Shown: one piece after another, positions 1 to 57,368 of the stretch
Layout of the letters: each line of letters begins with the position of its first letter
How positions within the stretch are numbered: the first letter of the stretch is position 1
Virus record (IMG/VR): IMGVR_UViG_3300029561_000002
Coordinates: 1 to 64,000 of that record
Source of the DNA: a virus
Length of the DNA: 64,000 bases
Reading direction: 5' to 3' (one strand)
Notes under the pieces: generated by a model
Database searches by the model: none
Told to the model about the DNA's origin: nothing
The model's input: only the letters and a program-made list of their open reading frames with translations
Position numbers and translations under genes: made by a program

Positions 1-126
1 CGCCTATGGAGAGTACAAGAACTTGTGAGTAGATAGATATTTATATCATCAAAAGCATACTCGTTGAAGTAGGAATGAAACATAGAAGTTTATAACTTTT
101 TATAAGTTTTCAGTAACGGTGTTTTT

Positions 127-2174: not shown

Positions 2175-2487
2175 AGACTATGTGCCGCCTGATGTAGTAA
2201 TACATCAGTGAAAATCGGGTAAAGTCGGTAAAGGTTAAGTTGACTTAATACGAACATATTATATTTACAGGATAAGTCAATAAGTTAATACCGAGATAAG
2301 GCTATAGAGCAAAAGCTATAGCACATTGTAGAGCGTAGGGATTGAACCTAGGCTCTTTTTTATTAAAGAGTTTAGAATATAATATCCCCAAGAGTATCCG
2401 ACATCCTTATGGGATGAAAATGTACGCCGAACTTATAGGAAACTATAAGAACTATAGGATAAAAAGCCTATAGGATAACATTAATTG
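2175..2487 (+). ncRNA. Group I-like intron 2 in tape measure gene (no ORF)
   Basis: 313 nt insert. It follows exon T2174 and ends in G2487. GCCG at 2184-2187 pairs with exon CGGT, at the same +9 offset as in intron 1. It shares GAAAATCG, CCCAAGAGT, GGATAAAAAGCC and the AATTG 3' end with intron 1. Confidence 0.6.
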
Positions 2488-5400: not shown

Positions 5401-5541
5401 ATGAACATGAACACCGGTGGGAACTCATCTCCACAGTACATTTCCAACACGATCAATCTGGACGGACGTGCTATTGCGAAAGCGGTCACAAAAGCCCAGA
5501 ACGACAATAACCGGCGGAAAAACCCTAGCCCAGCGTGGTAA
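2488..5541 (+). CDS. Tail tape measure protein, exon 3 of 3
   Basis: TYANQVRLLTMNIQSL.. continues the conserved core. About 1017 codons with Gly/Ala-rich hydrophobic stretches. The spliced product would be about 1592 aa. Confidence 0.8.
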   Translation, partial: TYANQVRLLTMNIQSLASVIGQGLIAAVLPGIQALNALMSKLMQAAETFRNFMYVLMGKKIKGSTSGVVNDLAGLEDSSADLSGLQDAGDAAASGLDDATSSAKALKKALSVLPFDELNQLTDNSSSSGSTSGTGKGKTGTGTTPSLGLGGITNQIDDALNKEETPINKWAEKIRKAFLNHDWEGLGKTIADMLNIGIRKIYDVISWSNVGPKISAFCNAFTRSFNSLVENIHWDRLGRTVGAGINTLVNTFELLIGPGGIDFVNIGNKLATGLRGMIDEVNWPNLGQVLGSGFMISWNILDGFVQKMSKENNAGLTGWEQLGTAVADAMNGAFGRISFSKIATTIATGLNGAFRTLAAWTQKFNWDELVNNISNGINTFIGKFKWQENGTSLNTFITNLLDALVDIAATTDWESFGRGIGLFLSQIDWGSHLKDLATVLGDVLGGIFSGLGETTAGKFVVAFAGVGLVSKADTLVSSILVAMGKLPTGASATATLLGTALSKIATAFSTSTLGTAVGVYALEAVDKLKAIPTTIATQIAPKILEVITTKLWPAATAFAGSIGTWITGTFAPAMATAFSTLGSVLFSPIGLAVIGAVVGGFLLWQNWDTVTEFAGKAKEAIENAFSTAGTWLYAHGSNLINGLYNGAKNVISTVGTWLKTNISDPIINGIKNLFGIHSPSTVFAEIGGYLISGLKQGISDRIGSVIDTFTNIKNTVTGVWDAISSNTKTAWDSIGSKIKGAWDTITGQTEIDSASAATSAEKSFSRVSTSATKNWGNSSREVTKNVRQMKVDASTELGRMDETVRSHFGSQYRIALGKWQNLGRDISSYIRGTMNSSIGGAINGIVNTISRNFGDMYSIGQTAMQNLRNGMESINIRTPHISMDYTDWQEGQTHKWRYNSRVDWYAKGGLFNAASVIGVGEAGKEAVLPLTNKQAMKSIADSITGNMPDGSIGLGKEEMTQAVTQGVAMAMMNMNTGGNSSPQYISNTINLDGRAIAKAVTKAQNDNNRRKNPSPAW

Positions 5542-5948: not shown

Positions 5949-6063
5949 TACGGTAAAACCAACAGGCTAGACCGATCATCGAAAAGCGGAAATGCCTTGC
6001 CGCCTGCCTGTTGATTTACATACATTTCAAGGCATCTTATATACGAAAGGCAGGTATTTTTCT

Positions 6064-6534
6064 ATGAAGTTTAAGGAACAATCCAAAAGTCTTAATATTC
6101 CAGTGGCAAGAGAACCTATTATATATTTTTTGCTGAATGGCGATGAAGTAGTTTATGTTGGACAGTCAATAACGGGACTTTGCCGACCTTATAGTCATTC
6201 CGATAAACAGTTTGACAATGTTTCAATTATTAGGTGTAAAAAAGAAGAATTGGATGATTTAGAAATATTTTACATTAGGAGATATATGCCAAAATACAAC
6301 AAAAGATGTATTGACGGTTCAAAAGATTTTTCTTTTTTAAAGGTTAAGGAAATCATCAGGAAAAATACTAATTTTGAACAATGCACGATTTTTGACATCA
6401 AAAGAATGATGAAAGTTATTGGGATTAAGGCATATGCGGTAAGAGATATGTTTTATATTTCAGCCGATGATACTGAAAAGCTTGTAGAATATACTAATAA
6501 TCATTTTGATGGATACAAGCTGGTGATAAATTAA
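6064..6534 (+). CDS. GIY-YIG-like nuclease domain protein (putative)
   Basis: IYFLLNGDEVVYVGQS ... FYIRRYMPKYN resembles the GIY/YIG/R/E/N pattern. Internal ATG of ORF 5992..6534. Confidence 0.45.
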   Translation: MKFKEQSKSLNIPVAREPIIYFLLNGDEVVYVGQSITGLCRPYSHSDKQFDNVSIIRCKKEELDDLEIFYIRRYMPKYNKRCIDGSKDFSFLKVKEIIRKNTNFEQCTIFDIKRMMKVIGIKAYAVRDMFYISADDTEKLVEYTNNHFDGYKLVIN

Positions 6535-6664
6535 TTGGTAAATTCAGTAGGCTAGGGTAGCTCCCGAAAAGTGTAAACCTTGATGCACCTGCCTACTGTT
6601 TTTATAAATCAAGGATTCTGGCATATTATGGAGATGCCAATGACCAACAAGGAGGTTATTTATT

Positions 6665-7642
6665 ATGGACAAAGAGTTTAATTATCCAAGAGATTTTAAA
6701 GGAGTATGGATCCCGAAACAGGTTTTTCTTGATGAAAGATTAAATGCGATTGAAAAATTGATTCTGGCAGAAGTCGACAGTCTTGATGTAGAAGGAAGCG
6801 AAGGATGCTTTGCGAGCAATGAATATTTAGCAAAATTCTGCCAATGTAGTGTGACAAAAGTTTCTACTTCTGTCTCCAAGTTAATAAAACTTGGATATCT
6901 TTATGTGCTTAAAAATGACGGAAGAAAAAGGTACTTAAAGAGTAGACTTTCAAATTTTGAAAGTCAGGAATTTAAAAACAGTAATTCAGACACGTCAAAT
7001 ATGAAACAAAGTAATAATAATTATAAATACAGTGTAGATGATATAGATAAAGACTTTATTTTATCAAATAAAGAGAAAAAGACTTTATCAAAGAATGATA
7101 AAGGTTCAAAGACTTCTGCTCCTAATAATATTAATATATTAAATATAAATAATATACCTTCACGGACAACTGAGCAGAAGGAAGTGCGCCGTAAGCAAAA
7201 ACAGAAAAATCGTTCTGAGAAATACCGGGACGAAGATGTACCGCAGATTCTGTACAATAAGTTTAATTCCCTGTATGGTGAACAGGAGAATATTCTGGAA
7301 GATCATGACATCTGTCTGACCATGGCAGTTATCGCTTATTACTTCAAACAGTACCGGGCGCACATGGGCGAACAGCATATAATGATTTCTGCCGAATACG
7401 TAGATCAGTTCATGGGAGTTATCATTGGCGATGATTCACCACTTCTGAAAGCGGACGTGGAAGAAAAAGATGAACTTCGGTTCTATCAGGACATGATAGA
7501 TGAGTTTTTTAAATCAGACCTTGGTCAGCGAAATGGAAAAGAGTTTGACCGTCATATCTGGTTGTTCTTCTCAGAGAGAAATCAAGACATTTTGTGTGAA
7601 CGGGTAAAGCAGAAATGGGATAACCAAGAATACATTGACTAA
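6665..7642 (+). CDS. wHTH (DnaD/replication-initiator-like N-terminus) protein with Asn/Lys-rich linker
   Basis: N-terminus VWIPKQVFLDERLNAIEKLILAEV...YLAKFCQCSVTKVSTSVSKLIKLGYL. Low-complexity middle region. Confidence 0.45.
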   Translation: MDKEFNYPRDFKGVWIPKQVFLDERLNAIEKLILAEVDSLDVEGSEGCFASNEYLAKFCQCSVTKVSTSVSKLIKLGYLYVLKNDGRKRYLKSRLSNFESQEFKNSNSDTSNMKQSNNNYKYSVDDIDKDFILSNKEKKTLSKNDKGSKTSAPNNINILNINNIPSRTTEQKEVRRKQKQKNRSEKYRDEDVPQILYNKFNSLYGEQENILEDHDICLTMAVIAYYFKQYRAHMGEQHIMISAEYVDQFMGVIIGDDSPLLKADVEEKDELRFYQDMIDEFFKSDLGQRNGKEFDRHIWLFFSERNQDILCERVKQKWDNQEYID

Positions 7643-10616: not shown

Positions 10617-13600
10617 TTGAGAGATATTTCAAACAGATTCAAGAATGAACAGGATAACGATAACAGGAATTATTTAAAATACGCAGACATAACGCTGACG
10701 GATGGAACAATTATCAATCTTACCAACGCTGATTTTTGGTCAAACGGTATGAAGTTTGAGGATTCCGTGTCTGACGACAACGTTTTCAAGATCGGGTCCG
10801 CAAATATCAACACATTGAATCTGTCAATCAATAACTTTGACGGAAAGTATACAGATTATGATTTTACAGATGCTACGGTGATCTGCTATGTAGGAATTGA
10901 ACTTGAGCCAGAAGATACCAGTGCATTGCTCGATACCACCGGCGATAAGATTCTGGATACGACCGGTAATGAAATCATAGTACATAAGAATGCTTTGATA
11001 GAAAAAATCCGAATATGCACAATGACGGTCATAGATACTCCGTACCAGAATACTACGATCATCGAACTACAATGTGAAGATAACATGCGGAAGTTCGACC
11101 GTGATTATTCAGCAAGTAAGCTGAAGTATCCAGCAACAAGGAAACAAATAATACAGGATGCTTGCAAAGTGTGCGGAGTAACACTGGACACGCTTAATTT
11201 CTATCAAGATTCTTATCAGATACCAGCAAGGCCCGATGATGAGGCGCTGACCTTCAGACAAGTTATAGCATGGGTATGTCAGATCGGATGCCAGTACGCC
11301 AGATGCGATAAATACGGCAGATTGACTATAAAATGGTATGATACGGAAATTGCTGATGCGGACAGAGTAGTTATAAAATCCACTAATGGTTTTACCCCGA
11401 ACCTGGACGATGTAGTGATAACTGGTGTGCAGGTAACAGAGTATCTGGAATCTACGTCTAAAGATGAAGAAGCAAGTTCGTATCTGTACGGAGAAGAAGG
11501 ATATGTTCTGAAAATCAGTGAAAACAAACTGATTCCGCAAGGAACCGGAGAGGTTGTTGCAAGTATAATCGGTGAAAAATGCGTCGGGATGTCTTTCCGG
11601 CCGTTTGAAACGGAATGTTTGACCGATATAGTTCTCGAAGCCGGTGATGCTGTTTTGATCACCGACCGAAAAGGGAAAAAGTATAAAAGCTTTTTGACAA
11701 ATGTCGTGCTGCAACCAGGGTCGTTTGAGCAGATTTCCTGTAATGCTGAAAGTGCAGCCCGGAATAGCTCAAAGACCTATTCACTTGTAACACAAGCAGC
11801 TGTCGACGCAAGGAAATCCGTTTGGAGAGAGCGAACCACCCGAGAGCAAGCATTGCAAGAGTTTAAAGACCGGCTGGACAATTCCACCGGTGTTTATACC
11901 ACGGTCCAGACTCAGCAGGACGGTAGCCAAATTTTTTATTTGCATGATAAACCCACACTTGCAGAATCGCAGGCTGTATGGAAGATGACCGCAGAAGCAT
12001 GGGGCGTTTCGACAGATGGTGGTCAAACATGGAACGGCGGAATGACCGTTGATGGAGATACGATAGTAAGGATTTTGAACGCTGTTGGTGTTAATGCTGA
12101 CTGGATTAACGCCGGAGCAATCACGGTAACAGATGCCGACGGAAACATCATCTTCTCTGTGGATATGGACACGAAATCCGTATATCTCGACGGAAGTGTT
12201 CAAATTGGTGGAGGAAAATCTCTTAACCAAACATTTGCAAACTATCTCCAAGAAAGCAAGGATTATTCAGACGGAAAACTATCTGACTACGCTGAAACGG
12301 TAACTGGCTCACTGGGAGAATTGCAAGACCAGATAGACGGTCAGATTGAAACATTCTATTACGATTATGAACCTACACTTCAGAACAAACCTGCATCAGA
12401 CTGGACTACTAAAGAAGAAAGACAAAAGCATGAAGGAGACTTGTTCTTTTGGAAACCGAATAAAGAAACTGGCGAAGGCGGATATGCTTATCGGTTCTTT
12501 TATGATTCGACCGTAGGTAAATGGGAATGGGTTCTTGTACAGGACACAGATATCACAAAAGCTCTTGCGGCGGCTCAAAATGCACAGGATACCGCAGATC
12601 ATAAGCGCAGAGTGTTCGTGACAAAACCGCAGCCACCTTACGATATCGGTGATTTATGGTCGCAGAGTGAAGATGAAGGTGGAGATATCCTTACCTGTAC
12701 AGTTTCAAGAGCAAAGGGAGCATCTTATGTTCAGTCGGATTGGCAGAAGCTGAATAAATATACCGATGATACAAAAGCAGAAGAGGCCCTTGAGGCTGCA
12801 TCCCTAGCCAGAAACATGACCATGCAGCTTGATAACGACTATCAAGGCATCCCGGTTGACAGCGACGGTAACTATACAGAGTTCCCGGAGTGCACCACAA
12901 CAGCGACCGTTATGTACGGTACACAGGACATCACGAATAACTGTACGTATACGATTACGACATCCCAGAATATACAGGGAAGTTGGGACAAGGAAAACAA
13001 AACCTATACTGTCACCGGGCTGACCGCAGACAGCGGATGGGTGAACATCAAAGCCGCATATCTGAATAACCTTGTCGTATCGAAACAGTTCTCACTTGCG
13101 AAACAGTACGCCGGACCACAGGGAATCCCGGGTGTCGGACAGGATGGCAAGACGACCTACCTGCATATTAGATATGCTCCTGTTCAGAACCCAACGGCGG
13201 CACAGATGAGTAAGACACCAAACAAGTACATCGGAACTTATACGGACTTTTCCGGCGTTGACAGTACCGACCCGACAAAGTACACATGGGCCAAGTTTGA
13301 AGGCGACCAAGGAGTGCAAGGCCCGAAAGGGGCGGACGGAAAGACACCGTACTTCCATATCGCTTACGCCAACAGTGCGGATGGAAAAACCGGCTTCTCT
13401 GTGGATGATAGCGTCAATAAGCTGTATATCGGGCAGTACACCGATTACACGCCGAATAACAGCACTGACCCGACAAAATACAGTTGGACGAAAATCAAAG
13501 GCGAGCAGGGAAATGCCGGAAGGACTTACTTCTTCCAGAGTAATGCAGATGTGTTACTGATGGGGGCAGATAAGAAGATAACACCGGCGCCGCTCATTGT

Positions 13601-14873
13601 GGATTCGTTCTACAGGGATGGAAACGGCGAAGTTGCACAGTCACAAAAAGGTTGGTGGAAACTTGAAAAATCCACCGACAACGGCGCTACATGGTCAGCG
13701 CTCACGGTATCACAGACTGCGGCACTTGACCGTTTGAGTGTTAATGTCAACGGACTGTCACTCAAGGCACATGACATGCTCAAGGTTTCACTGTATTTTG
13801 ACCAGTCGAAAACGAAACTTGCGGACTACCAGACATATTCCGTTGCGGTCGATGTGGCGTCACTGACACAGGAACAGATAGTTGATATCCTATCAGACGG
13901 CGGAAAGTTCAAGGGTCTGTATTATGGCAAGGATGAGAGTGGAAACGCGACGCTGTATATTTCGTTCAATGCCGCAAAAGGTGGAACACTTGCACTCGGC
14001 GGACAGAATGACGGAAACGGCTTGGTGAAAATATACGATAGCAGTGGAAGTTTGATTTTAACCATTGGGCAAAATGGAATAGAAACCAGAGCAACGACGC
14101 TGACCAATAAAAATGCAAATGGTAAAATTGCATTTAACAAGAAAGGCTTGACATTTGTTCAGGATATAGCGGGCGGTGGTACAAGTTCAGGCAACGACTT
14201 GCATCTTGAAAAAAGCATAATTTCATTTGATTCACTTGCTAACGTCATAGGTGAGCTCGACAAGCTAACAGTTAGGGGAGATGCAAAAGCAGAAGGCAGA
14301 CTCCTTTTTTACGACTATGAAAATCAAAGCAAAAAAGCGAGTGGAGCGAAAGCGGTAACAAGACAGCCTGTAGCGTCTGTTACTGCCGATACTAACCGAG
14401 TAGCTTTTTTGAGTTCTGACTATCACGCAAATGGATATGGAGCCGGTACCGAACATGGTAGTTACCGCCTTGGCGTAAAAGCGCAGTGGGGCGGCAGCTC
14501 TTATGAAACGCATTATATTTATTCGAACCTGGCTGTTTCCGACATCCGCCTAAAAGAAAACGTTAAAAACAGCGAAACAGACGCCCTCGAAACGGTCAAT
14601 CGCATGAAAGTCCGTCAATTCGATTGGAAAGAGCGGATGGGCGGATGGCATCAGGATATCGGTTTCGTGGCGGATGAACTGGAAGAAATCGACCCGAACT
14701 TGGCACTGGGCGGCGGATATGACGAAAACGGTGAGATGGACATTAAGCAGATTAATAGCCAGTACTTGCTGAACTACGCCATTAAAGCCATACAGGAACT
14801 TAGTGCAAAGGTTGACGAGCAAGAAAAACGTATCAAGGAATTAGAAAGGAGATTACAAAATGGCAAAGTTTAA
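10617..14873 (+). CDS. Tail fibre / minor structural protein with C-terminal intramolecular chaperone (peptidase S74-like)
   Basis: 1418 aa, TTG start after AGGAGG. Two ~65-aa repeats (G.QG..G.DGKT.Y.HI.Y........YIG.YTD....DSTDPTKY.W.K..G.QG). C-terminus SDIRLKENV...MKVRQFDWKE...GFVADELEEIDP plus a coiled coil. Confidence 0.75.
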   Translation: MRDISNRFKNEQDNDNRNYLKYADITLTDGTIINLTNADFWSNGMKFEDSVSDDNVFKIGSANINTLNLSINNFDGKYTDYDFTDATVICYVGIELEPEDTSALLDTTGDKILDTTGNEIIVHKNALIEKIRICTMTVIDTPYQNTTIIELQCEDNMRKFDRDYSASKLKYPATRKQIIQDACKVCGVTLDTLNFYQDSYQIPARPDDEALTFRQVIAWVCQIGCQYARCDKYGRLTIKWYDTEIADADRVVIKSTNGFTPNLDDVVITGVQVTEYLESTSKDEEASSYLYGEEGYVLKISENKLIPQGTGEVVASIIGEKCVGMSFRPFETECLTDIVLEAGDAVLITDRKGKKYKSFLTNVVLQPGSFEQISCNAESAARNSSKTYSLVTQAAVDARKSVWRERTTREQALQEFKDRLDNSTGVYTTVQTQQDGSQIFYLHDKPTLAESQAVWKMTAEAWGVSTDGGQTWNGGMTVDGDTIVRILNAVGVNADWINAGAITVTDADGNIIFSVDMDTKSVYLDGSVQIGGGKSLNQTFANYLQESKDYSDGKLSDYAETVTGSLGELQDQIDGQIETFYYDYEPTLQNKPASDWTTKEERQKHEGDLFFWKPNKETGEGGYAYRFFYDSTVGKWEWVLVQDTDITKALAAAQNAQDTADHKRRVFVTKPQPPYDIGDLWSQSEDEGGDILTCTVSRAKGASYVQSDWQKLNKYTDDTKAEEALEAASLARNMTMQLDNDYQGIPVDSDGNYTEFPECTTTATVMYGTQDITNNCTYTITTSQNIQGSWDKENKTYTVTGLTADSGWVNIKAAYLNNLVVSKQFSLAKQYAGPQGIPGVGQDGKTTYLHIRYAPVQNPTAAQMSKTPNKYIGTYTDFSGVDSTDPTKYTWAKFEGDQGVQGPKGADGKTPYFHIAYANSADGKTGFSVDDSVNKLYIGQYTDYTPNNSTDPTKYSWTKIKGEQGNAGRTYFFQSNADVLLMGADKKITPAPLIVDSFYRDGNGEVAQSQKGWWKLEKSTDNGATWSALTVSQTAALDRLSVNVNGLSLKAHDMLKVSLYFDQSKTKLADYQTYSVAVDVASLTQEQIVDILSDGGKFKGLYYGKDESGNATLYISFNAAKGGTLALGGQNDGNGLVKIYDSSGSLILTIGQNGIETRATTLTNKNANGKIAFNKKGLTFVQDIAGGGTSSGNDLHLEKSIISFDSLANVIGELDKLTVRGDAKAEGRLLFYDYENQSKKASGAKAVTRQPVASVTADTNRVAFLSSDYHANGYGAGTEHGSYRLGVKAQWGGSSYETHYIYSNLAVSDIRLKENVKNSETDALETVNRMKVRQFDWKERMGGWHQDIGFVADELEEIDPNLALGGGYDENGEMDIKQINSQYLLNYAIKAIQELSAKVDEQEKRIKELERRLQNGKV

Positions 14874-15381: not shown

Positions 15382-16797
15382 TTGGAAATTAAAGGAATTG
15401 ACGTATCATCCAATCAAGGAAAACCAGACTGGGCGAAAGTAGCTAAATCTGGTATTAAATTTGCGATTTTGAGAGTGCATCAGAAAGCCGGTATTGACGG
15501 CTCATTCGAGTACAACTACAAAGGTTCTAAGAGCAACGGAATCCTTATCGGCGGGTACAAGTATTCATACGCTCTGACACCGGCACAGGCTATTGACGAA
15601 GCGGAGGATGTGATCGCCGCACTGAACGGACGTGGACTGGACTTTCCAGTATTCTACGACCTTGAGTGGTCTAATCAGCGGAAACTCGGCAAGCAGGCTA
15701 TTGAGAACATTGCAGTTGCATTTCTGGTAAGGATGAAAAAAGCCGGTTATAAGGTCGGTATATACTGCAATCTGGACTGGTACAACAACGTTCTGACTGA
15801 TGCACTCAGAAAGTATGAGTGCTGGATTGCACGTTATCCGGCCAGCGACAATGGTTCCGTACAAGAAAGGTTACGTCCGTCTGTCGGTGTAGGCTGGCAG
15901 TATTCAAGCAAAGGAAAAGTATCCGGCATCAGCGGAAATGTTGATATGGATGTATTCTACAAGGACTATAGAGGAACGACACAGAAAGGAGAAACAACAA
16001 TGGTAAAAATCAGTAACTGTGGACATGACGAAAACGGAAGATATGCAGGTGGAAAAGCAGGAGATCAGACCGGTACAGAGTATCAGATCATGAACTGGTA
16101 CAGCAGACCGTGGCTCTGTGTTCTAAGATTCAATGACGCTAAAATCGCAGCCATGATCGCAGACATGGCGACAAAAGCGGCACGGAACAATCTCATAGGT
16201 TACGATCAGGGTACTGCCGGGAACAGCAATGACCGGTATACGTTCTGGCAGCACCTGAAGGCAAGTAACTACGATCCGGCGCAGATCACGGTAGCTTGCG
16301 AATCTGATTGCAGCGCAAGTACAGCTGCTATCGTCAAGGGCGCTGGATATCGCCTGAATAACGCAAAGCTCAAAGCAGTCAGCATTTATCTGACGACACG
16401 AAACATGAGGGCCGCAATGAAGGCTGCTGGTGCGAAAGTCCTGACGGACAGCAAGTACCTGACATCCGGTGACTATCTGAAGGCGGGAGATATCCTCTTG
16501 AACGATAACCACCACGTAGCTATCGCTGTTACCACCGGTGCAAAAGCAAGTACACCTTCAGCAACACTCACCGGCACCTTCCAGACAAGGCTTCCGATTC
16601 TGAGAAAAGGCAGTTCCGGAACAGCTGTGGCAATGCTTCAGGCGATGCTGGGAGTGGAAGTTGACGGACAGTTCGGGAATGACACATATAATTCCCTCAA
16701 AGTTTTCCAGAAAAATGTTGGTGTAAAGGCAAATGGAACTTGCGGCATTGATACATGGAAGAGAGTGATTGAGCATATGAAAGCCAACACGAAATGA
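15382..16797 (+). CDS. Endolysin: GH25 muramidase + central domain + PG_binding_1
   Basis: N-terminus GIDVSSNQGKPDWAKVAKSGIKFAILRV is GH25-like. C-terminus GSSGTAVAMLQAMLGVEVDGQFGNDTYNSLKVFQ is a peptidoglycan-binding repeat. Confidence 0.85.
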   Translation: MEIKGIDVSSNQGKPDWAKVAKSGIKFAILRVHQKAGIDGSFEYNYKGSKSNGILIGGYKYSYALTPAQAIDEAEDVIAALNGRGLDFPVFYDLEWSNQRKLGKQAIENIAVAFLVRMKKAGYKVGIYCNLDWYNNVLTDALRKYECWIARYPASDNGSVQERLRPSVGVGWQYSSKGKVSGISGNVDMDVFYKDYRGTTQKGETTMVKISNCGHDENGRYAGGKAGDQTGTEYQIMNWYSRPWLCVLRFNDAKIAAMIADMATKAARNNLIGYDQGTAGNSNDRYTFWQHLKASNYDPAQITVACESDCSASTAAIVKGAGYRLNNAKLKAVSIYLTTRNMRAAMKAAGAKVLTDSKYLTSGDYLKAGDILLNDNHHVAIAVTTGAKASTPSATLTGTFQTRLPILRKGSSGTAVAMLQAMLGVEVDGQFGNDTYNSLKVFQKNVGVKANGTCGIDTWKRVIEHMKANTK

Positions 16798-22479: not shown

Positions 22480-23059
22480 TTCGGCGGAAGTCAAATTTAA
22501 GCCAAGAAAGGGAAAGAGCTTTTTAGTCGTCAGAAGTGACCGTTTCAGCGGAACACCGGACGATATCATTGTTGAGATCCCGAACAGACTCAAAGGTACG
22601 TTCCGGGAATGGAATTGGATAAAGGTTTCGGGAAGAATCCGTTCCAAATGGGTCAGAGCAGACCACCAAGAGAAAAAGTATATGTATCTGGAAGCATATG
22701 ATGTCAGCACGGAAGGAACGCTTCTTGTAAATACAGTAGAAATGACTGCAAATATTTGCAAGAAGCCGGTGCTGAGAAAAACACCGTTAGGAAGGACACT
22801 TTGTGAAATTTGCGTGGCAATCAATGGATACAGACGGTCAGAATATATTTCTTGTATTTCATGGAGAGATCTGGCGGTGAAAGCTTCTGAATGGAAAGTA
22901 GGTACAAAAGTTAGATTAAAGGGACGTATGCAGAGCCGTGATTATTGGAAAAAACAGTCAGATGGTTCTTATGTTAGAAAAACGGCATACGAAGTTTCGG
23001 TAATAGAGATGGAGGAAATCAAAGATGAAAAAGGTGACTTTGAAAAAACTGAGCGTTGA
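22436..23059 (+). CDS. Tandem OB-fold, SSB-like protein (putative)
   Basis: Two SSB-like halves (NRATLTGFVTDSAEVKF.. and NTVEMTANICKKPVLRKT..). Start is uncertain (22391 or 22436). Confidence 0.45.
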   Translation: MGDLNRATLTGFVTDSAEVKFKPRKGKSFLVVRSDRFSGTPDDIIVEIPNRLKGTFREWNWIKVSGRIRSKWVRADHQEKKYMYLEAYDVSTEGTLLVNTVEMTANICKKPVLRKTPLGRTLCEICVAINGYRRSEYISCISWRDLAVKASEWKVGTKVRLKGRMQSRDYWKKQSDGSYVRKTAYEVSVIEMEEIKDEKGDFEKTER

Positions 23060-25010
23060 AAATTATAAGAAATTTGAAGCAAGAGAATTTGATTTCGCCG
23101 GAAGAACAGAAGTTTCCGGAAGAAATAGACAGGGTAAAACTTCTCTGATGGATGCATATTTTGATGTTCTGACCGGAAAACTGGCAGACGGAACGCTTCC
23201 GAACAATATCCGCCGGAAGGTTGACGGTGAAGAAGTTGACGATCCGGTGGTGAGAGAACTGGTTATTGACGTTGACGGAATGGAATATGTTGTCCAGAAA
23301 AAGACCAAAAAGGGAAAATCATCAAATACGGTTGAATATTACGTCAACGGAATTAAGCGGAACAAAACCGAGTATATGGAGATTCTTAAAAGGATTGCCG
23401 ATCCTGATACGATTGCCATGTGCAGCAACGCCAGAGTGTTTTTGAACGAGATCCAGAAAGCAACAGCAAAAGCAAGGGAAACACTGGGAGGAATAGCTGG
23501 ATTCAGTGAATCACAGTTCAGAGCAGAGCATCCGGAATATGAATGGATAAAGAATGAAGGTGTGGAAGGAGATTCTATCGAAGAAATCTTAAAAGCCCGC
23601 AGAAGAGACCTGAGAAAAGCCAAGTCAGATGTTGATGATATTGCAAAGCAGATCAGAAAAGAGCAGAGCCGACAGGTTGAATGCGATGAAACACTTCCAG
23701 CGCAGAGGGACGATCTTCTTGACTTACTGAAAGAAAACGAGAAGCAGGAGAAAGTGCTCTGCGATGCTTCAAGAGAGTACGACCGGATATCTATCGAACT
23801 GGCAGGACTGAAGCGTTCAAGGGACGCACTGGTTGAGAAAGCCGAAAAATCAGCCAGGGAGAATCACGACAGAATAACTTCCTTATTATATACACTGAAA
23901 TCCGATAAGAAAAATGCTGAGAACAAGTTACGACTTGCCAGAATAGATCTGGAACACGCCAGCAAAGGGATTGAGCGACATAAGGCAGCACTGGCACAGG
24001 CCAAAAGCAAATATACAGAAGCATTAAAAGAGAAGTGGGGCGGAGATACCGAACTTACTGCAATCCGTGGAGAAGAATTTGATCAGGCATCAGCTGTTTG
24101 CCCGACTTGCGGACAGATGCTTCCAGAAGAGGCTGCAAAGCGAAAGTTTGAGTTTAATAAACAGACCAGAATCTCCAAAATGTTAGAAGAGAAAGAACAG
24201 TTTGAGAGAAACAAACGAGCCAAGTTGGAACAGATCACTGAGGACGGAAACGAAGCTTCAGAGGGATTAAAAACAGCGAATAAAGCAAAGAAAGAAGCTG
24301 AAGCAGCTATCGAAGCTGCCAAGAAAGAGATAACATCTCTGGCGCTTGAAATTGCAGAAACAGAAAAGGAAACAGAGAAACCGATTCCAAAACCGGATAT
24401 GTCTGGTGATGAAGAATACAAGGCTGTTTGCGACAAAATTTCAGCACTGGAAGAAAGTATCAACGGAATCGGAAACGGCGAAAATGACAGGATTTTGTTA
24501 AGCAACAACCGTCACTCTCTGGAAGCGAAGCTCAGAGATGTTGAAGCCAAGATTAAAACTCAGACTGCAAGGCTTGAAGAAAAAGCCGACAGCCTTGAAG
24601 CACTACAGGAAGAGCAGAAGAAACTTTCACAGAAACAGGCGGATATTCAGCAGAAAGTAGATCAGCTGACTGACTATTCCATTGAGAAAAATAAGGCACT
24701 GGCAGCAGTGATTAATCCGCACTTCAAACACTTCCACTTCCAGTTCCTTGACTACACACAGGACGGAGAACCGATGGAAACTTGCCGGATGATCTGCAAT
24801 GGCATTGATTACGCAAACGGTCTGAACCACAGTGATCGGATTCTTTGTGATATCGACCTTGCGATGGGGCTTCAGGAGATGAACGACTTACGGCTTCCGG
24901 TTTGGGTTGACGATACCGAAAGCATAAATTCGGACAGGATTCCAGAATTAGATACACAGATGATTTTGCTCAAGGTTTCTGAGGGTGAGTTGGAAGTAAA
25001 AGGAATTTAA
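23025..25010 (+). CDS. Rad50/SbcC-like coiled-coil ATPase
   Basis: Walker A GRNRQGKTS, a long coiled coil with a CPTCGQ hook-like motif, and Walker B-like LPVWVDDTES. Confidence 0.7.
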   Translation: MKKVTLKKLSVENYKKFEAREFDFAGRTEVSGRNRQGKTSLMDAYFDVLTGKLADGTLPNNIRRKVDGEEVDDPVVRELVIDVDGMEYVVQKKTKKGKSSNTVEYYVNGIKRNKTEYMEILKRIADPDTIAMCSNARVFLNEIQKATAKARETLGGIAGFSESQFRAEHPEYEWIKNEGVEGDSIEEILKARRRDLRKAKSDVDDIAKQIRKEQSRQVECDETLPAQRDDLLDLLKENEKQEKVLCDASREYDRISIELAGLKRSRDALVEKAEKSARENHDRITSLLYTLKSDKKNAENKLRLARIDLEHASKGIERHKAALAQAKSKYTEALKEKWGGDTELTAIRGEEFDQASAVCPTCGQMLPEEAAKRKFEFNKQTRISKMLEEKEQFERNKRAKLEQITEDGNEASEGLKTANKAKKEAEAAIEAAKKEITSLALEIAETEKETEKPIPKPDMSGDEEYKAVCDKISALEESINGIGNGENDRILLSNNRHSLEAKLRDVEAKIKTQTARLEEKADSLEALQEEQKKLSQKQADIQQKVDQLTDYSIEKNKALAAVINPHFKHFHFQFLDYTQDGEPMETCRMICNGIDYANGLNHSDRILCDIDLAMGLQEMNDLRLPVWVDDTESINSDRIPELDTQMILLKVSEGELEVKGI

Positions 25011-26193: not shown

Positions 26194-26802
26194 ATGAATA
26201 ATAGTGAAATTTTAAAGAAAACAAAGGAACTGGTTGAGCTTCTGGAAAAGCAGGAAAAATCATGCAAGGTGAGATTATCGGAACTTAATTCGGGAGATAT
26301 CTTCCAGACTACCGGAAAGCGAAAATACAAGGTCTTGGAACAGTACACAGAGCATACCAAGATCATTTCACTCGGATTCGTGAAAGAGAATGTGAAATTT
26401 GATGATGATACAACTGACTATAACAAATCATCCTTAAAGAAACTCTGTGATACTGAAATTCTGAAAGATTTTGAAAAAGAGTTTGGAGAAGAGAATATCG
26501 AAACTGACATAGTAGATTTGATCACCGTGGATGGACAGAAAATCGGAGAAACGGAATGCAAAGTTAGACCACTGACGTTTGATGAAGCGCGTAAATACAC
26601 AGAACTGACGCCAAATGATGAATTGGATGATTTCTATTGGACTTGCTCCACATGGAGCACAGTGGAAAGAGGATGGAAATATGCGCTAGCCGTTGTTTCG
26701 CTTTCCGGCAGCATCGGCTGCAATAGCTACTACTGCAGCGGCGGTGTTCGCCCAGTTTGTATCTTAAAATCTAATATCTTTGTATCTAAAGCGGAGGAAT
26801 GA
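26194..26802 (+). CDS. DGR target protein 1 (VR at C-terminus)
   Basis: Paralog of the next gene. C-terminus ..AVVSLSGSIGCNSYYCSGGVRPVC is encoded by VR1. Confidence 0.75.
   Translation: MNNSEILKKTKELVELLEKQEKSCKVRLSELNSGDIFQTTGKRKYKVLEQYTEHTKIISLGFVKENVKFDDDTTDYNKSSLKKLCDTEILKDFEKEFGEENIETDIVDLITVDGQKIGETECKVRPLTFDEARKYTELTPNDELDDFYWTCSTWSTVERGWKYALAVVSLSGSIGCNSYYCSGGVRPVCILKSNIFVSKAEE
26690..26754 (+). repeat. DGR variable repeat VR1
   Basis: 65 bp aligned ungapped to the TR. 12 differences, 11 of them at TR adenines. Confidence 0.85.
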
Positions 26803-27404
26803 AAATGAAGAAAAATCTGAAATATTTTGAAAATGAATTAAACCGGATCTACAAAGAATTTGCTGAATATAAAAAGCAGCATATGGAAAAACCGGAAATT
26901 GGCAAAACGATGGAAATTGCCGGCATGGAATGGATGATTCTGGATAAGACAGAAAAAGGATATTTTGCCATTTTAAACAGCTTCGACGGGGAAAACAGAA
27001 AATTTGATTCAGATTCAAATAATTGGATTAAAAGTGATCTTAGAAAAGAATTAAACGATTCTTTTCTTAAGAAAATCACAGAAGAGTTGGGGGAAGATGC
27101 AGTTGTTGAATTTGATCGCGATTTACTTTCATTGGACGGCCAGACAGAATACGGGCATTGTGAAGATAAGATTGCACTTTTGACCGTGGATGAATACCGG
27201 AAATATCGTAAATTACTTCCGAATACGAAGAACTGGTGGTGGTTGATTACGCCATTGAGCACACCAGCAAATGGTTACAGCTCAACACTTTCCGTTGTTT
27301 CGCCTTCCGGCAGCATCGTCAACTATGACTGCTTCAACAGCAACGGTGTTCGCCCAGTTTGTATCTTTTCTTCTTCTATCTTTGAATCAAAGAACGATAA
27401 ATGA
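26799..27404 (+). CDS. DGR target protein 2 (VR at C-terminus)
   Basis: C-terminus ..SVVSPSGSIVNYDCFNSNGVRPVC is encoded by VR2. Paralogous to target 1. Confidence 0.75.
   Translation: MKMKKNLKYFENELNRIYKEFAEYKKQHMEKPEIGKTMEIAGMEWMILDKTEKGYFAILNSFDGENRKFDSDSNNWIKSDLRKELNDSFLKKITEELGEDAVVEFDRDLLSLDGQTEYGHCEDKIALLTVDEYRKYRKLLPNTKNWWWLITPLSTPANGYSSTLSVVSPSGSIVNYDCFNSNGVRPVCIFSSSIFESKNDK
27292..27356 (+). repeat. DGR variable repeat VR2
   Basis: 65 bp aligned ungapped to the TR. 8 differences, all at TR adenines. Confidence 0.85.
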
Positions 27405-27775
27405 TGGAAAATGAAGATTTAAGAGTTATCACAAAAGCGAAGCAATTAGCCAAACATACGTTAATTATGACCAGCAATGCGCGGAGATATCCAAAGAAGT
27501 TTAGATTTTCTCTTGTAGATAAAATGCAGAATAAAGCTCTGGAAATATATGAAATGCTTTTTGAAGCCAACCGAACAGACATAAAAGACTATAAAAGAGA
27601 AAGATTGGAGTTGCAAACAAAAGCTATTACTCATTGCGACGAGCTTATGTATTTTATAGAGCTTTCTTATGAATTGAATATCATAAATTCAGGAAGTATG
27701 GAAGCGTGGTCCAAAATAGTTATGGACGTAAAACATATGGCGATTGCTTGGAGAACAAAAGACAAAAATAGGTAA
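27401..27775 (+). CDS. avd: DGR accessory variability determinant (Avd-like four-helix bundle)
   Basis: 124 aa, basic and helical. Sits between the targets and TR/RT, as in canonical DGR cassettes. Confidence 0.7.
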   Translation: MMENEDLRVITKAKQLAKHTLIMTSNARRYPKKFRFSLVDKMQNKALEIYEMLFEANRTDIKDYKRERLELQTKAITHCDELMYFIELSYELNIINSGSMEAWSKIVMDVKHMAIAWRTKDKNR

Positions 27776-27799
27776 GAATATAGGTTATGCGTTGCAATA

Positions 27800-27864
27800 C
27801 CGTTGTTTCGCCTTCCGGCAACATCAACAACAATAACTACAACAACAGCAACGGTGTTCGCCCA
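27800..27864 (+). repeat. DGR template repeat (TR)
   Basis: Intergenic and AAC/AAT-rich (aac atc aac aac aat aac tac aac aac agc aac). Matches both VRs except at adenines. Confidence 0.85.
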
Positions 27865-27968
27865 ACCTGGATCACAGGCAGACAGAGTAAGCACAAAGCT
27901 GAAATCAGTAAAGATACAAGTAAATGCATAGCCTTTCCAAAATGGATAAATAAAAAGGAACAAAAACA

Positions 27969-28988
27969 ATGGATAAAGAAATTGTTGCAAATTTTGAGAA
28001 TTTATATCGTTCTTACAAGAAGGTTAAGAACGGTAAGAAATTTAATTCAGGTACTGCAAGGTTTTCTAATATGGCTCTCGAAGGAATTCAGATACTGAAA
28101 GAACAGCTAGAAAATCAAACATATAGCATAAGCCCATATAATAAATTTCAGATTCATGAACCGAAAGAGAGGACAATAGAATCATGTGCATTTAAGGATA
28201 AAGTAGTCCAAAGATGTTTTTCTGATTACATCCTGACACCGAAACTAGAAAATATTCTGATTAAATGGAACACCGCCGGGCAGCATGGAAAAGGACAACA
28301 TATGGCGATGAATGGATTAAGAGATCAGATGTTGGATTTCTATAAAAGAAATGGAATGAATACCTGGATTGTAAAATGCGATATTCATAAATACTTTTAC
28401 AGCATAGACCATGAAATTATGAAAGACATACTGGACTACTATTTTGATGATGATTTTACGACTTGGATGAATCATTTATTTATCGACAGTACAGATAACC
28501 CGGGACTGCCATTAGGAAATCAGGTAAATCAGAAATACGCTCTTTTGCTGTTACATTCATTGGACCAAATGATAACGATTGAATTTGGAAATCCATATTA
28601 CGGACGATATAACGATGATTTTTATGTGTTGTGCAAAACAAAAGACATCGCTAGAGAAATTCTTAAAGCGATTCGAATGATGGTTAAAAGTCTCGGGTTG
28701 GAATTAAACCCAAAGTCACAAATTGTACCGTTCCGAATGGGACTGTGTTATCTTGGATTCCACCATTACGTGACTGATGAGGGGAAATATATCAGAAAAT
28801 TACGTGGTGACAGAAAAAGAAATACTCAGAAAAAGGTTCGTAGATGGGTTCGTGCAGTAAACGAAGAAAAGATGCCGGTTGAGAAATTCAACGAAAAGTA
28901 CGGAGCATGTAAGAACCATATGCTACACGGAAACTGCATCAAATTATGCCACAGTATGGATTTGGAAATTGAAAGGAGAATGAAATGA
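27969..28988 (+). CDS. DGR reverse transcriptase
   Basis: RT motifs: IHEPKERTI, KCDIHKYFYSIDH, LPLGNQVNQ (DGR-type), YGRYNDDFYVL (YxDD). Confidence 0.9.
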   Translation: MDKEIVANFENLYRSYKKVKNGKKFNSGTARFSNMALEGIQILKEQLENQTYSISPYNKFQIHEPKERTIESCAFKDKVVQRCFSDYILTPKLENILIKWNTAGQHGKGQHMAMNGLRDQMLDFYKRNGMNTWIVKCDIHKYFYSIDHEIMKDILDYYFDDDFTTWMNHLFIDSTDNPGLPLGNQVNQKYALLLLHSLDQMITIEFGNPYYGRYNDDFYVLCKTKDIAREILKAIRMMVKSLGLELNPKSQIVPFRMGLCYLGFHHYVTDEGKYIRKLRGDRKRNTQKKVRRWVRAVNEEKMPVEKFNEKYGACKNHMLHGNCIKLCHSMDLEIERRMK

Positions 28989-29374
28989 GATTAATTAGTC
29001 AGACGGGAGATATTGACATTCCTTACGAAAATGCTTCATTAAGCAGAGCTGAAAATATCATAAGAGCATACATTCCAGAGACCGGTGAAAAAGGAACAAT
29101 TATGGCTGCTTACTCAACAGAAGAACAGGCGAAAGAAGCAATGAGCATGGTTATATATGCATATATTTCAAACAAACCAATAGTCATTCTTCCAAAAGAA
29201 GGAAAAACAAAATTGGAATCGACTTTCTTGGGAAGATACGAATTAAGGCTTCTTAGAGAAAATCTTCCCAATGTAATGGATTTAAAAAACGAAAATGGAG
29301 ACTACGTTCTTCCACTAAAAATAAGAGATAGTATCAAAGAAATTGCCGCAGCTTTAAATGTAGCGGGATTATAA
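28985..29374 (+). CDS. Hypothetical protein translationally coupled to the RT
   Basis: ATGA overlap with the RT stop codon. Confidence 0.5.
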   Translation: MRLISQTGDIDIPYENASLSRAENIIRAYIPETGEKGTIMAAYSTEEQAKEAMSMVIYAYISNKPIVILPKEGKTKLESTFLGRYELRLLRENLPNVMDLKNENGDYVLPLKIRDSIKEIAAALNVAGL

Positions 29375-29418
29375 AATAATCGGTATTAATTTTGCAGAAA
29401 GAAAAGGAGGTGATTCCA

Positions 29419-30174
29419 GTGTTCATGCGAGTAATTTCAACAGGAAGTACGAAAGGAAACTGTTACGCTTTGCAGTCAAGGACAGGCGAGATTGTTCTTC
29501 TTGACTGCGGATGCAAGTACAAGAAAATCCTCAGAGGGATTGACTACCAGATAAACAATGTTTCCGGTGTGCTTCTTTCACATGAACATGGTTAAGGCGA
29601 TCACACCGAAGCTATTCATGAAATCATAAGCGCCGGAATCACAGTTTATACCGGTCAAGAAACAATCAGTAATTTGGGTATAACAGACGGAACTATAAAA
29701 GCTGTCACTGAAAAGAAGTACTTCAAAATCGGTTCTTTCAGCGCAGTTCCGCTCAGACTACCACATACATCTGCAAATAAAGAACCGTGTCCGAACTTCG
29801 GGTATCTAGTGGAACATGAAGAAATGGGAAAACTTCTTTACCTGACAGACTTTGAGCATTGCCGGTACAAATTCAAATCAATGGAACTTAATCACTTGGT
29901 TATTGGTTGTAATTACTGCGAGGAGCTGATAGACAGAAACAACCCGAAGTGGAAACACCAGATCACCGGGCATTGTTCTTTGTCAACTTGTAAGCAATTC
30001 ATTAAGGAAAACCTCACAGAATCGCTCAAAACGATAACACTGGTACATTTGAGCGGTGATGTTTCAGATGCCGGGAAGATGCTTAAAGAAGTCAAAGAAG
30101 TTGTTGGGGATGATATTCTGGTTCAGATTGGACGGTCTGGACTGGAAGTTGATTTGAAATTGTTTCCATTTTGA
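29419..30174 (+). pseudogene. Metallo-beta-lactamase-fold hydrolase/nuclease interrupted by an in-frame TAA
   Basis: ORFs 29392..29595 and 29674..30174 share one frame. The sequence reads LLSHEHG-TAA-GDH, so the HxHxDH motif is split by 6 extra nt that include a stop codon. Confidence 0.6.
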
Positions 30175-45186: not shown

Positions 45187-45940
45187 TTCGTGATTTTACA
45201 CAGCCCCTCAGAAGATGCTATAGATTAATATATGCAAGATAGACAAAATGGAAATCTAGGAAAAACGGTTATTTTTGAGTTACCCCTTTTTTTAGTCATT
45301 TTTCGGACTTTTTCTATGTCTGAATATTGCAAATATTCAAGAGCCTCCAGAAATATCGTTCGTTTCACAACCGGTACGACCAATTTTATAAAAGCCTGTG
45401 GATCACCTGCGGACCGGTGCCGGGATTTTCTGGCGGTCAATAACTGATACTCTAATTTCGCCCACAACGCCCGCAAAACTGACAAGGCTAGACTTCTTCA
45501 ACCGTAATCTAATCGGCCGTTAAAAAGCCGAATAGGGCGGTTGTACAGTGGATCCAAAATAGAACATACTTTTGCCACTGTTCGGACGCTGCGCCCCGGA
45601 TCGGTGCCAGCTGCACGCGAGAGCACGACAAAAAGAGCCAGAAACGGCTATATATAATCATAATATCACCATACCGGGATTCCGTCAACCGTGAGTATTG
45701 ATTGATAAAAACGTGCAAAAACGGCTTGAAAATCAGGCAATGATAAAAATATCAATGAACGTCAAAGAGACGAAAAACGGCGAAAAAAGCAAATCAACAA
45801 CCGTATTTCCGGGCAAACAAAAGTTAAGTTGTCAAGGCACACGGCTTGTAGATAGATTTCACAAGCCTGATCCGCTCCCCAGGCCGTGAACCTGGCGCCG
45901 GACTGGATACCGGAAGAGCAGCAGAAAAAGAGCAGCGTTT

Positions 45941-47818: not shown

Positions 47819-47899
47819 AATTTCCCTTTCTGGTCTGCCATCATCAGCACCGGGAGACCGTCCCGCGGTGGACGCCCCTAAAATCTGAGGCGTTTCGGC

Positions 47900-48109
47900 T
47901 TATGCTTCTATTGTTCGCCCGCGGCCGTCCATAAATACCTCCCCGGCGGGCCACTGGCAAAGCTTTGCCCGTCCCTCTTTTACAACACGCTCATTATAGC
48001 GCCCGGCGTGCTGAAGTGCTTTGTATGTGATTGTTTTAGCGGTTTTGTTCGTGATTTCGAATGTTAAACCGCTTTCATAGTATCTTTTTCCGATTTCAAA
48101 TTTTTTCAT
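47900..48109 (-). CDS. Hypothetical protein (69 aa)
   Basis: ORF track. AGGTAAAAGGA RBS region. Confidence 0.5.
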   Translation of the reverse strand: MKKFEIGKRYYESGLTFEITNKTAKTITYKALQHAGRYNERVVKEGRAKLCQWPAGEVFMDGRGRTIEA

Positions 48110-56620: not shown

Positions 56621-56692
56621 AGCGCATTGGCGAAGTGGCAACGCATCGGACTTTGACTCCGCTATTCGTGGGTTCGAATCCCACATGCGCCG
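56621..56692 (+). tRNA. tRNA-Gln (anticodon TTG)
   Basis: Hand-folded cloverleaf. Acceptor AGCGCAT/ATGCGCC (A1.C72 mismatch), anticodon loop CT-TTG-AC, T arm GTGGG-TTCGAAT-CCCAC. Confidence 0.7.
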
Positions 56693-56923
56693 CTCTGCAT
56701 CGGATTTCGCCTTTCCTCTGATGCAGGTTGGATTTTCTTTTTCCCTTTGCCACCTATCACAACGGTGATGATTAAAGGAACTGTCAAATGTTCCGGGTGG
56801 CTTTGCCTTAGTTGGCAAGATTAATTTCTTCTATGGTTTACCTTTGTTGCAGCTGGCGGTCAAGAACTGCAACAGTAGTAAAAAGACAGATATCGCAGCG
56901 ACCCTGTATCTTTTTGCTACTCA

Positions 56924-56997
56924 GGAAACTTAGCTCAGTTGGTTAGAGCAGCCGGCTCATAACCGGTCGGCCCTGGGTTCGAACCCCAGAGTTTCCA
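56924..56997 (+). tRNA. tRNA-Met (anticodon CAT), elongator-like
   Basis: Perfect acceptor GGAAACT/AGTTTCC, D arm TAGCTCAGTTGGTTAGAGCA, anticodon loop CT-CAT-AA, T arm CTGGG-TTCGAAC-CCCAG. Confidence 0.85.
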
Positions 56998-57296: not shown

Positions 57297-57368
57297 GGCA
57301 GGATGGAGAAGTGGAATCTCACAAGGCTCATATCCTTGAGAACGGCGGTTCAAATCCGTCTCCTGCAA
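57297..57368 (+). tRNA. tRNA with CAT anticodon (Met or Ile2) and a G1.A72 mismatch
   Basis: Acceptor GGCAGGA/TCCTGCA (mismatch at 1-72), D stem GAGA/TCTC, anticodon stem CAAGG/CCTTG with loop CT-CAT-AT, T arm GGCGG-TTCAAAT-CCGTC. Confidence 0.7.

Follow-up and report, generated by a model that had tools for sequence, protein, structure and literature searches.

Diversity-generating retroelements (DGRs) are, to our knowledge, the only natural system of targeted protein hypermutation known in prokaryotes and their viruses, and the accepted purpose of those carried by phages is receptor switching. Here, we describe a DGR within a 64,000-nucleotide (nt) stretch of viral DNA, referred to below as the window, which comprises positions 1 to 64,000 of the IMG/VR virus record IMGVR_UViG_3300029561_000002 and is part of the roughly 78-kb temperate, siphovirus-like genome of an uncultured human gut phage. 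Taking its identity, mechanism, and activity together, we are highly confident that the element is a complete and recently active DGR of the BPP-1 type. Like the BPP-1 DGR (mtd-avd-TR-brt), it presents a target, avd, a template repeat (TR), and a reverse transcriptase (RT) in that order, exhibits adenine-specific transfer, has its closest solved RT relative in that system, and places the variable repeat (VR) at the C-terminal end of a C-type-lectin-fold protein. Unlike BPP-1, it includes two tandem targets (T1 and T2) of about 200 amino acids (aa), both lacking the beta-prism and beta-sandwich domains of Mtd, its TR measures 65 nt, and the cassette is surrounded by early genes for recombination and replication rather than by tail-fibre genes.

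The closest described relatives of these targets are found in other gut phages, among which DGRs are frequent and active in those of Firmicutes (bioRxiv 2026.01.26.701711). DUF6273 has been recognised as a C-type-lectin-like domain that heads the tentaclins, a group of Hoc-like DGR targets (PMC10743442), and it also occurs in a cell-wall-anchored immunoglobulin A (IgA) peptidase (PMC12402451). The tentaclins of Mushu, Brigit, and nd4 (tgt1) share with T1 and T2 the DUF6273 lectin-like domain and a hairpin VR, but they carry one to four immunoglobulin (Ig)-like domains, including a C-terminal anchoring Ig (PMC10743442), of which T1 and T2 have none. Small targets consisting of DUF6273 only have likewise been published, namely the nd4/nd12 "tgt2" proteins (PMC10743442), those of Lelie/CP11 (PMC11792537), and the remote core target of Toutatisvirus, located 17 kb from its TR (bioRxiv 2024.10.15.618418). 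Receptor binding has been proposed, but not tested, for these small targets in all three reports, in none of which did we find a comment on their early-gene position. They resemble T1 and T2 in their single lectin-like domain, C-terminal beta-hairpin VR, and location among early genes, and some of their relatives similarly keep the targets without a DGR. The difference is that the small protein is there a second target paired with a Hoc-like tentaclin, whereas in the present phage and in two further lineages (contigs L251/L253 and L255) a tentaclin is missing and two small paralogues directly 5' of avd make up the full set of targets. The targets of these three lineages also possess an extra N-terminal helix, which is lacking from the versions in Brigit, Toutatis, and nd4.

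The intracellular DGR targets of bacteria, kinases and NTPases for example, belong to the cell's own signalling proteins and combine several domains; they are neither phage-encoded nor single-domain. Those of cyanobacteria and other bacteria nonetheless provide a precedent for variable lectin-fold proteins inside cells (PMC7517822). Among phages, the second target of Quimbyvirus has been suggested by its authors to be non-structural and to function in phage-host conflict (PMC8008677). It too is a C-type lectin target encoded away from the structural genes and near methyltransferases and nucleases; however, Quimbyvirus is a Bacteroides phage whose genome is unrelated and whose RT is frameshifted, and one of its two targets is structural, whereas both targets described here are non-structural by position. 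The first-pass annotation, made from the sequence alone, had called the targets and their setting unusual, which was an overstatement on both counts in view of the published DUF6273-only targets (PMC10743442, PMC11792537, bioRxiv 2024.10.15.618418) and of Quimbyvirus (PMC8008677). The element belongs to kinds already published, and what is particular to it is the restriction of its targets to two small, anchor-less paralogues and the early-operon location of the entire cassette.

A DGR with two tandem targets

The genes run in the order recT, T1, T2, avd, TR, and RT, and the cassette with its adjoining open reading frame (ORF) consists of the following:

26194-26802, plus strand: T1, 202 aa; N-terminal helix and DUF6273 C-type-lectin-like domain; phrog_9958, E 3.5e-22
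26690-26754, plus strand: VR1; 12 mismatches to the TR, 11 on TR adenines
26799-27404, plus strand: T2, 201 aa; start overlaps the T1 stop (ATGA); phrog_9958, E 3e-51
27292-27356, plus strand: VR2; 8 mismatches to the TR, all 8 on TR adenines
27401-27775, plus strand: avd, 124 aa; phrog_3206 "Avd protein of DGR", E 3.8e-23, full length
27800-27864, plus strand: TR, 65 nt, of which 20 are A
27969-28988, plus strand: DGR RT, 339 aa; RVT_1, 50.6 bits; phrog_1423, E 2.4e-84
28985-29374, plus strand: ORF of 129 aa; overlaps the RT stop; phrog_25456, function not assigned

At T1/T2, T2/avd, and RT/next ORF, each start codon overlaps the stop codon before it, and recT ends one base ahead of T1. The 129-aa ORF occurs in only some related loci, and its membership in the cassette is doubtful. 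T1 and T2 are paralogues sharing 34% identity. No further TR-like copy or DUF6273 gene is present elsewhere in the 64-kb window, nor among the head genes beyond it (about 14 kb, judged from a 92%-related contig). The coordinates and parts of the DGR given in the first-pass annotation were all reproduced exactly, including its two tandem paralogous targets and its count of template differences at adenines.

The TR aligns ungapped to both VRs with 19 of the 20 mismatches located on TR adenines, and the probability of at least this many falling on A by chance is 2.7e-9, given 20 A among 65 positions. Read in frame, the TR contains GGC AAC ATC AAC AAC AAT AAC TAC AAC AAC AGC AAC GGT, in which eight AAY codons and three codons with a single A are variable. 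By simple arithmetic from the TR, this would permit about 15^8 x 4^3 = 1.6e11 proteins per target with zero stop codons. The VRs end 16 codons before the target stops. According to the established DGR mechanism, the TR is transcribed and its RNA copied by an RT-Avd complex into adenine-randomised cDNA, which then replaces the corresponding 65-nt repeat in the 3' part of T1 or T2.

An inactive RT had been named in the first-pass annotation as a finding that would count against its reading, and the protein is instead intact, its catalytic motif being YNDD. Among solved structures, its best relative is chain 8ub7_A (E 3.8e-25), which we take to be the Bordetella phage BPP-1 enzyme bRT, with RYNDDF of the phage protein aligned to RYMDDI. 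The RT is classed by this solved relative and by phrog_1423, in a comparison that included no DGR-specific curated RT model. Were the element not a DGR, the repeats would have to stem from paralogy or gene conversion and the RT from a retron, a group II intron, or a defence system, and group II intron and defence-RT (Drt/UG) models do match the RT weakly, with scores short of their thresholds. These matches, however, as well as those to retron models, score 3- to 20-fold under the respective cut-offs, intron, maturase, and retron features are all missing, and an adenine restriction expected by chance at only about 3e-9 is seen again in every related locus. We therefore regard this explanation as practically negligible. 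A defence-system reading of the RT and its neighbours was similarly rejected, as PADLOC returned only generic sub-family RT matches and none for T1, T2, or Avd.

Rewriting of the variable repeats

Evidence for recent activity derives above all from four metagenomic contigs, L260-L263, that are identical to the window outside of the VRs, with zero changes over 1271-2276 aligned nt of the region from T1 to RT. In global alignment, these same contigs have an identical TR, yet exhibit 10-11 changes in VR1 and 9 in VR2, and all of their VR alleles differ from the TR at adenines only. For the longest contig, the chance that all 20 differences would fall within the 130 VR bases, were they distributed randomly along it, is about 1e-25. 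Since the contigs differ at 19-20 VR positions and nowhere else, the last homing should be younger than any other mutation across more than 2 kb. Furthermore, one exact T2 variant is encoded by 20 contigs, L260-L263 among them, of several samples such as ERZ1304107 and SRR10691994, and the contigs chosen for this identical VR2 harbor four VR1 alleles, which indicates that VR1 and VR2 are rewritten independently.

Similar patterns are evident at the population level. Among 53 T2 and 121 T1 homologues (81-97% identity), an entropy of about 3 bits is confined to AAY-derived codons, exceeding 3 bits in T1 at aa 173, 175-178, 180, 181, and 183, while the ATC, TAC, and AGC codons yield exactly the sets expected of A-only substitution (I/F/V/L, Y/C/F, and S/C/G). 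In 52 related loci, the VR mismatches number 531 and 572 at A, versus 113 and 94 elsewhere, and most loci contain 0-2 non-A mismatches. Distinct VR alleles number 50 and 52 in 57 loci. The TR is invariant at the A positions where the VRs vary, and its non-A polymorphisms reappear at matching frequencies in both VRs, which is a signature of copying from TR to VR. The VR polymorphism restricted to A positions that had been anticipated in the first-pass annotation is abundant in public assemblies. By these sequence comparisons, DGR activity is demonstrated at the population level and recent events in this strain are strongly, if indirectly, supported. Separately, the 90%-identity protein cluster P0131, a T1 homologue, comprises 1335 member sequences from a single listed contig, a size that would fit very many VR variants on one scaffold in public data.

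Little weighs against a complete, recently active DGR of the BPP-1 type, although a few observations should be noted. Activity was assessed from assembled contigs rather than from reads. RT motif 4 reads LGNQVNQ, ending in NQ rather than the usual SQ. The best curated match of Avd, NCBIfam DivGenRetAVD, reaches 37 bits against a cut-off of 80, and the Pfam models bAvd and 23S_rRNA_IVP are likewise under their cut-offs. Lastly, the sole non-A mismatch is a C->T change (TR 27812, VR1 26702) that converts Pro to Leu and the conserved SPSG motif to SLSG. As this change is private to the window and absent from the eight closest contigs (global alignment), it represents a point mutation postdating the last rewriting of VR1. 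The same change is pertinent to the possibility that the cassette is a relic, inactive in this genome and with VR differences inherited from an active ancestor, because fresh homing would have erased it. The single T2 allele shared by 20 contigs further implies that turnover is not constant, and about 23 relatives have lost the DGR. On the other hand, RT, Avd, and TR are all intact, the TR keeps all of its 20 adenines, and a relic would not account for contigs that are identical outside of the VRs and divergent within them. A relic is accordingly quite improbable, and we retain recent activity as the preferred interpretation.

Flanking sequences and predicted RNA structures

Besides the repeats themselves, the first-pass annotation had pointed to a flank shared by both VRs and replaced by a different one 3' of the TR, and the sequences are as claimed. 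They include the following candidate sites for the initiation of mutagenic homing (IMH):

26743-26765, plus strand: candidate IMH of VR1, GGTGTTCGCCCA then GTTTGTATCTT
27345-27367, plus strand: candidate IMH of VR2, GGTGTTCGCCCA then GTTTGTATCTT

The candidate IMH is identical in VR1 and VR2, whereas its TR counterpart consists of GGTGTTCGCCCA then ACCTGGATCAC. Across 52 loci, the VR flank CGCCCA GTTTGTATCTT and the TR flank CGCCCA ACCTGGATCAC are each at least 90% conserved per position, and the pair would fit a candidate IMH and IMH*. However, GTTTGTATCTT encodes the conserved Val-Cys-Ile (VCI) motif of both paralogues, and constraint on the protein may explain its identity between the VRs just as well as an IMH would. 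A further minor point against a DGR of the BPP-1 type is that no conserved hairpin was found 3' of the VRs in the consensus of the 52 loci, and a 6-bp AT-rich stem 3' of VR2 in the window is not retained there. A hairpin or cruciform 3' of the VR is required in BPP-1, but is not universal among DGRs. In L077, the TR is followed by the VR-type GTTTGTATC in place of ACCTGGATC, and an intermediate ACCTGTATC is found 3' of the TR in L017, L033, and L083; these flanks may have arisen through VR-to-TR conversion of the IMH* region.

Two structures were predicted around the TR:

27782-27791, plus strand: 5' arm of a predicted long-range RNA stem, AGGTTATGCG
27866-27878, plus strand: predicted hairpin CCTG-GATCA-CAGG, directly 3' of the TR at the IMH* and spacer start
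27925-27934, plus strand: 3' arm of the predicted long-range RNA stem, TGCATAGCCT

The predicted 10-bp stem encloses the TR and most of the spacer (RNAalifold, 31 distinct relatives), and its 10 pairs are retained in 29-31 of the 31 sequences with one-sided changes only. In the hairpin, one C-G pair is replaced by A-U on both sides in 12 of 31 sequences. This double change is probably a single event, and the RNA structures are therefore suggestive only.

Architecture of the targets

T2 matches the Pfam DUF6273 model with 33.4 bits, over the cut-off of 23.5, and T1 with 22.3 bits, slightly under it. With 76 diverse homologues, an AlphaFold2 model of T2 reached a pLDDT of 92.3, compared to 67 from a shallow alignment. 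The model consists of a helix at residues 2-27 followed by a compact alpha/beta lectin-like domain, in which the VR forms a surface beta-hairpin (173-183). Its only significant Foldseek match in the PDB is 9qa6 (E 8.5e-7), the N-terminal DUF6273 domain of the Thomasclavelia ramosa IgA peptidase, after which come weak matches to classical C-type lectins, and its top viral fold matches are DUF6273 proteins of gut phage metagenome assemblies. Mtd does not appear among the listed fold or sequence matches of the targets. The VR end of T2 is also matched by phrog_10993, "Hoc-like head decoration". No Ig-like domain was detected in T1 or T2 by Pfam, or in the T2 model. Conserved cysteines at 121, 178, and 188 were checked for a disulfide and exhibit no convincing co-variation. 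The VR residue spectrum of N, S, D, Y, and G is typical of ligand-binding loops. The family comprises about 1433 clusters of mostly ~200-aa, single-domain proteins, and ten longer members contain no domains besides DUF6273. As a small and well-folded scaffold bearing an 11-codon randomised hairpin, the targets are also of practical interest as a natural binder library.

The first-pass annotation had additionally stressed that the roughly 200-aa targets lack a signal peptide. This is accurate, and neither protein has a hydrophobic segment (top 19-aa Kyte-Doolittle window below 1.0), but it is uninformative regarding their location, as virion proteins lack a signal peptide too.

Retention of the targets in relatives

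The T1-T2 pair is found at the same place in about 80 related loci, wherever the contig reaches. In 23 loci, avd-TR-RT is missing (three keep an RT fragment), and the targets are intact in all 23. Their scaffold dN/dS is 0.15-0.22 with or without the DGR, indicative of purifying selection. Given that the targets are kept under purifying selection despite loss of the DGR, it appears that they are the core of the locus and that the DGR is a dispensable accessory. Some VR2 alleles are common to several DGR-less loci, whereas nearly all are unique in loci with a DGR. It was also considered whether RecT might integrate the cDNA. This idea found no support, as recT was not detected beside the targets in various relatives and DGR-less phages keep the same position.

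Rearrangements were encountered in several relatives. In L062, L068, and L071, at about 10605, an RT fragment is fused directly to the end of T2, with avd and TR deleted; these three share one VR2 allele, which is also found in L070 and, except for one residue, in L078, while their VR1 alleles differ. In L028, at about 11001-11065, the repeat in the TR position has 9 adenines and is VR-like (GGC ATC GGC GGC GAT TAC...). Mutagenesis or overwriting seems to have reached the template itself in this relative, an event that would leave its DGR disabled. L053 contains a tandem T2-avd duplication at 64-2348 (T2, avd, T2, avd, RT) with four repeat copies, which is either real or an assembly artefact at repeats.

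Beyond the immediate group, T2 homologues with 30-34% identity are encoded by FP_Toutatis, Lelie, FP_Brigit, nd4, and nd12. The small DUF6273 gene of Toutatis and Lelie lies between methyltransferases and the replication initiator, and in nd4 its neighbours are lysis/lysogeny genes on one side and exonuclease/SSB/DnaC-like genes on the other. The Brigit copy comes first after the helix-turn-helix (HTH) regulator genes located behind the recombinase, ahead of exonuclease, RecT, and replisome organiser genes. The Brigit gene (L089, MG711465.1, 3948-4559) is a remote DGR target, as all 7 of 7 mismatches between its 3' end and the TR at 45411-45483, 41 kb away, are on TR adenines; in the literature consulted, the Hoc-like target alone is mentioned for this phage. 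The more distant L251/L253 and L255 (33-38% identity), which stem from other metagenomes, encode two tandem phrog_9958 genes followed by avd, TR, and RT, located among replication-initiator genes or directly after a CI-like repressor, with 56 of 56 TR/VR mismatches on TR adenines. Two of three distant family representatives had no IMG/VR match. In all, small DUF6273 genes occur among early genes in the six lineages examined, which are a sample and not a census, and the full tandem-target cassette is present in three of the six, namely the present group, L251/L253, and L255.

Genome surroundings

The phage group comprises at least 281 IMG/VR contigs, and 90%-identity protein clusters number 3785 for T2 and 3290 for T1. 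We found no close isolate relative of the group; for its portal, endolysin, and recombinase, the closest relatives in isolated phages share only 30-40% identity and come from phages of various Bacillota hosts. No prophage copy was detected in GTDB species genomes (one scan with the RT and one with a T2 alignment). The host is assigned broadly as a Gram-positive gut bacterium. The principal genes of the window, among which the targets lie between recT and the replication genes just as the first-pass annotation had placed them, are as follows:

2485-5541: tail module, tape measure
10617-14873: tail module, 1418-aa tail protein with host-range domains
15382-16797: tail module, endolysin
19845: plus-strand early unit, anti-repressor
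22391: early unit, SSB-like
23025-25010, plus strand: early unit, Rad50/SMC-like ATPase, 661 aa
25230-26192: early unit, recT
29392-30174: early unit after the DGR, metallo-beta-lactamase (MBL)-fold hydrolase
31033: early unit, SSB
33359: early unit, methyltransferase
39834: early unit, DnaD-like
40615: early unit, DnaC-like
42510: large serine recombinase
60207: terminase
62482: portal

The operon boundaries used here were drawn from gene packing alone, because a promoter/terminator scan of 17-36 kb yielded sites no more numerous than in shuffled sequence.

Some neighbouring features merit separate mention. The Rad50/SMC-like ATPase (23025-25010) has weak PADLOC matches to LmuB (Lamassu) and JetC models, but a function in recombination is more likely for it than one in defence. 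The MBL-fold hydrolase gene beside the DGR is interrupted by an in-frame TAA (29593-29595) within its HxHxDH metal-binding motif, whereas its counterpart in L001 encodes 249 aa of the Pfam Anti-Pycsar_Apyc1 family and the remainder aligns at 91% identity; the interrupted gene is probably a pseudogene or an assembly error.

Several RNA elements were found elsewhere in the window:

3-75, plus strand: RAGATH-18 RNA motif, 75 bits against a gathering score of 45
5960-6032 and 6545-6614, plus strand: two int-alpA RNA motifs
47829-47900, minus strand: type II hammerhead ribozyme, 58.8 bits against a gathering score of 37
56621-57623, plus strand: four-tRNA cluster upstream of the terminase; Gln-TTG, two Met-CAT, and one with an aberrant anticodon loop

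The RAGATH-18 motif lies directly 5' of a 524-aa ORF, itself 5' of the tape-measure gene. The int-alpA motifs are located on either side of a 180-aa ORF (5992-6534) and are followed, between the tape-measure and tail genes, by a replication-initiator/DnaD-like ORF (6665-7642). This odd position of replication genes within the tail module may reflect an inserted element.

Discussion

Based upon the features of this locus and its relatives, T1 and T2 would constitute a core pair of an early operon to which the DGR is an accessory that is often lost. The operon would include the Rad50/SMC-like ATPase, RecT, T1, T2, [avd-TR-RT], the MBL-fold hydrolase, and SSB, with DnaD-like and DnaC-like genes further downstream. 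With moderate confidence, and in line with the suggestion made in the first-pass annotation, we propose that T1 and T2 are soluble early binders devoid of a virion anchor, which would act inside the cell upon a variable molecule of the host or of a rival element. Several observations are consistent with such a role: 1) the early-operon position is kept across lineages with differing neighbour genes, 2) T1 and T2 are translationally coupled to recT and avd, and 3) no anchoring domain was found in the family of about 1433 clusters, while the phage has an ordinary large tail protein. Presumably, each incoming genome would be tested directly on its own target variant.

The principal competing explanation sees in T1 and T2 receptor-binding proteins or adhesins, either attached to the virion or otherwise extracellular, which would be comparable to Mtd, happen to be encoded outside of the late operon, and dock to the particle via the N-terminal helix or the lectin domain. 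This is the role favoured for the small targets by the authors who described them (PMC10743442, PMC11792537, bioRxiv 2024.10.15.618418), and it counts against an intracellular function along with two further points. DUF6273 is extracellular in its other known settings, heading predicted virion proteins and tail-fibre fusions and occurring in the IgA peptidase (PMC10743442, PMC12402451), and in Brigit, Toutatisvirus, and nd4 the one TR that diversifies the small protein also serves a Hoc-like or tentaclin protein predicted to be part of the virion (the latter two phages: bioRxiv 2024.10.15.618418; PMC10743442). The phrog_10993 match at the VR end of T2 and the VR residue spectrum typical of ligand-binding loops speak for this role as well. 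However, such a role does not readily explain why the genes reside in the early operon in all six lineages examined and are here coupled to recT and avd, nor how the proteins would be anchored, given that no anchoring domain is present and that the Brigit, Toutatis, and nd4 versions lack even the N-terminal helix. In addition, host-range domains are already present in a 1418-aa tail protein of the phage, and no Mtd-like fold was matched. We consider a virion or extracellular role possible, but rather unlikely, and leave the remaining weight to roles of neither kind. An intracellular role therefore remains the one that we prefer.

A bolder version of the intracellular role would be that the small early DUF6273 proteins in general are not receptor binders, but a DGR-randomised soluble repertoire that serves as an antibody-like, anticipatory counter-defence. 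Produced inside the cell as infection begins, such binders would neutralise or capture a hypervariable protein of the host or of a rival element, for example a restriction enzyme, a superinfection factor, or a sensor or effector of defence. The module would be common to at least six phage lineages, and alleles could become "frozen" after loss of the DGR. We offer this proposal tentatively and judge it to be unlikely as it stands.

It is evident that a widespread group of gut phages devotes its DGR wholly to two small, anchor-less, lectin-like proteins encoded beside recombination and replication genes. Should the targets prove to be virion proteins, the element would be one more ordinary gut-phage DGR, albeit a well documented one with clear recent activity. 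If it is true that they are non-virion proteins, the textbook role of phage DGRs would need widening, and a family of about 1400 sequence clusters would gain a function. In either case, the conserved early-operon setting of the small DUF6273 targets poses a concrete and testable question regarding the purpose of phage DGRs.

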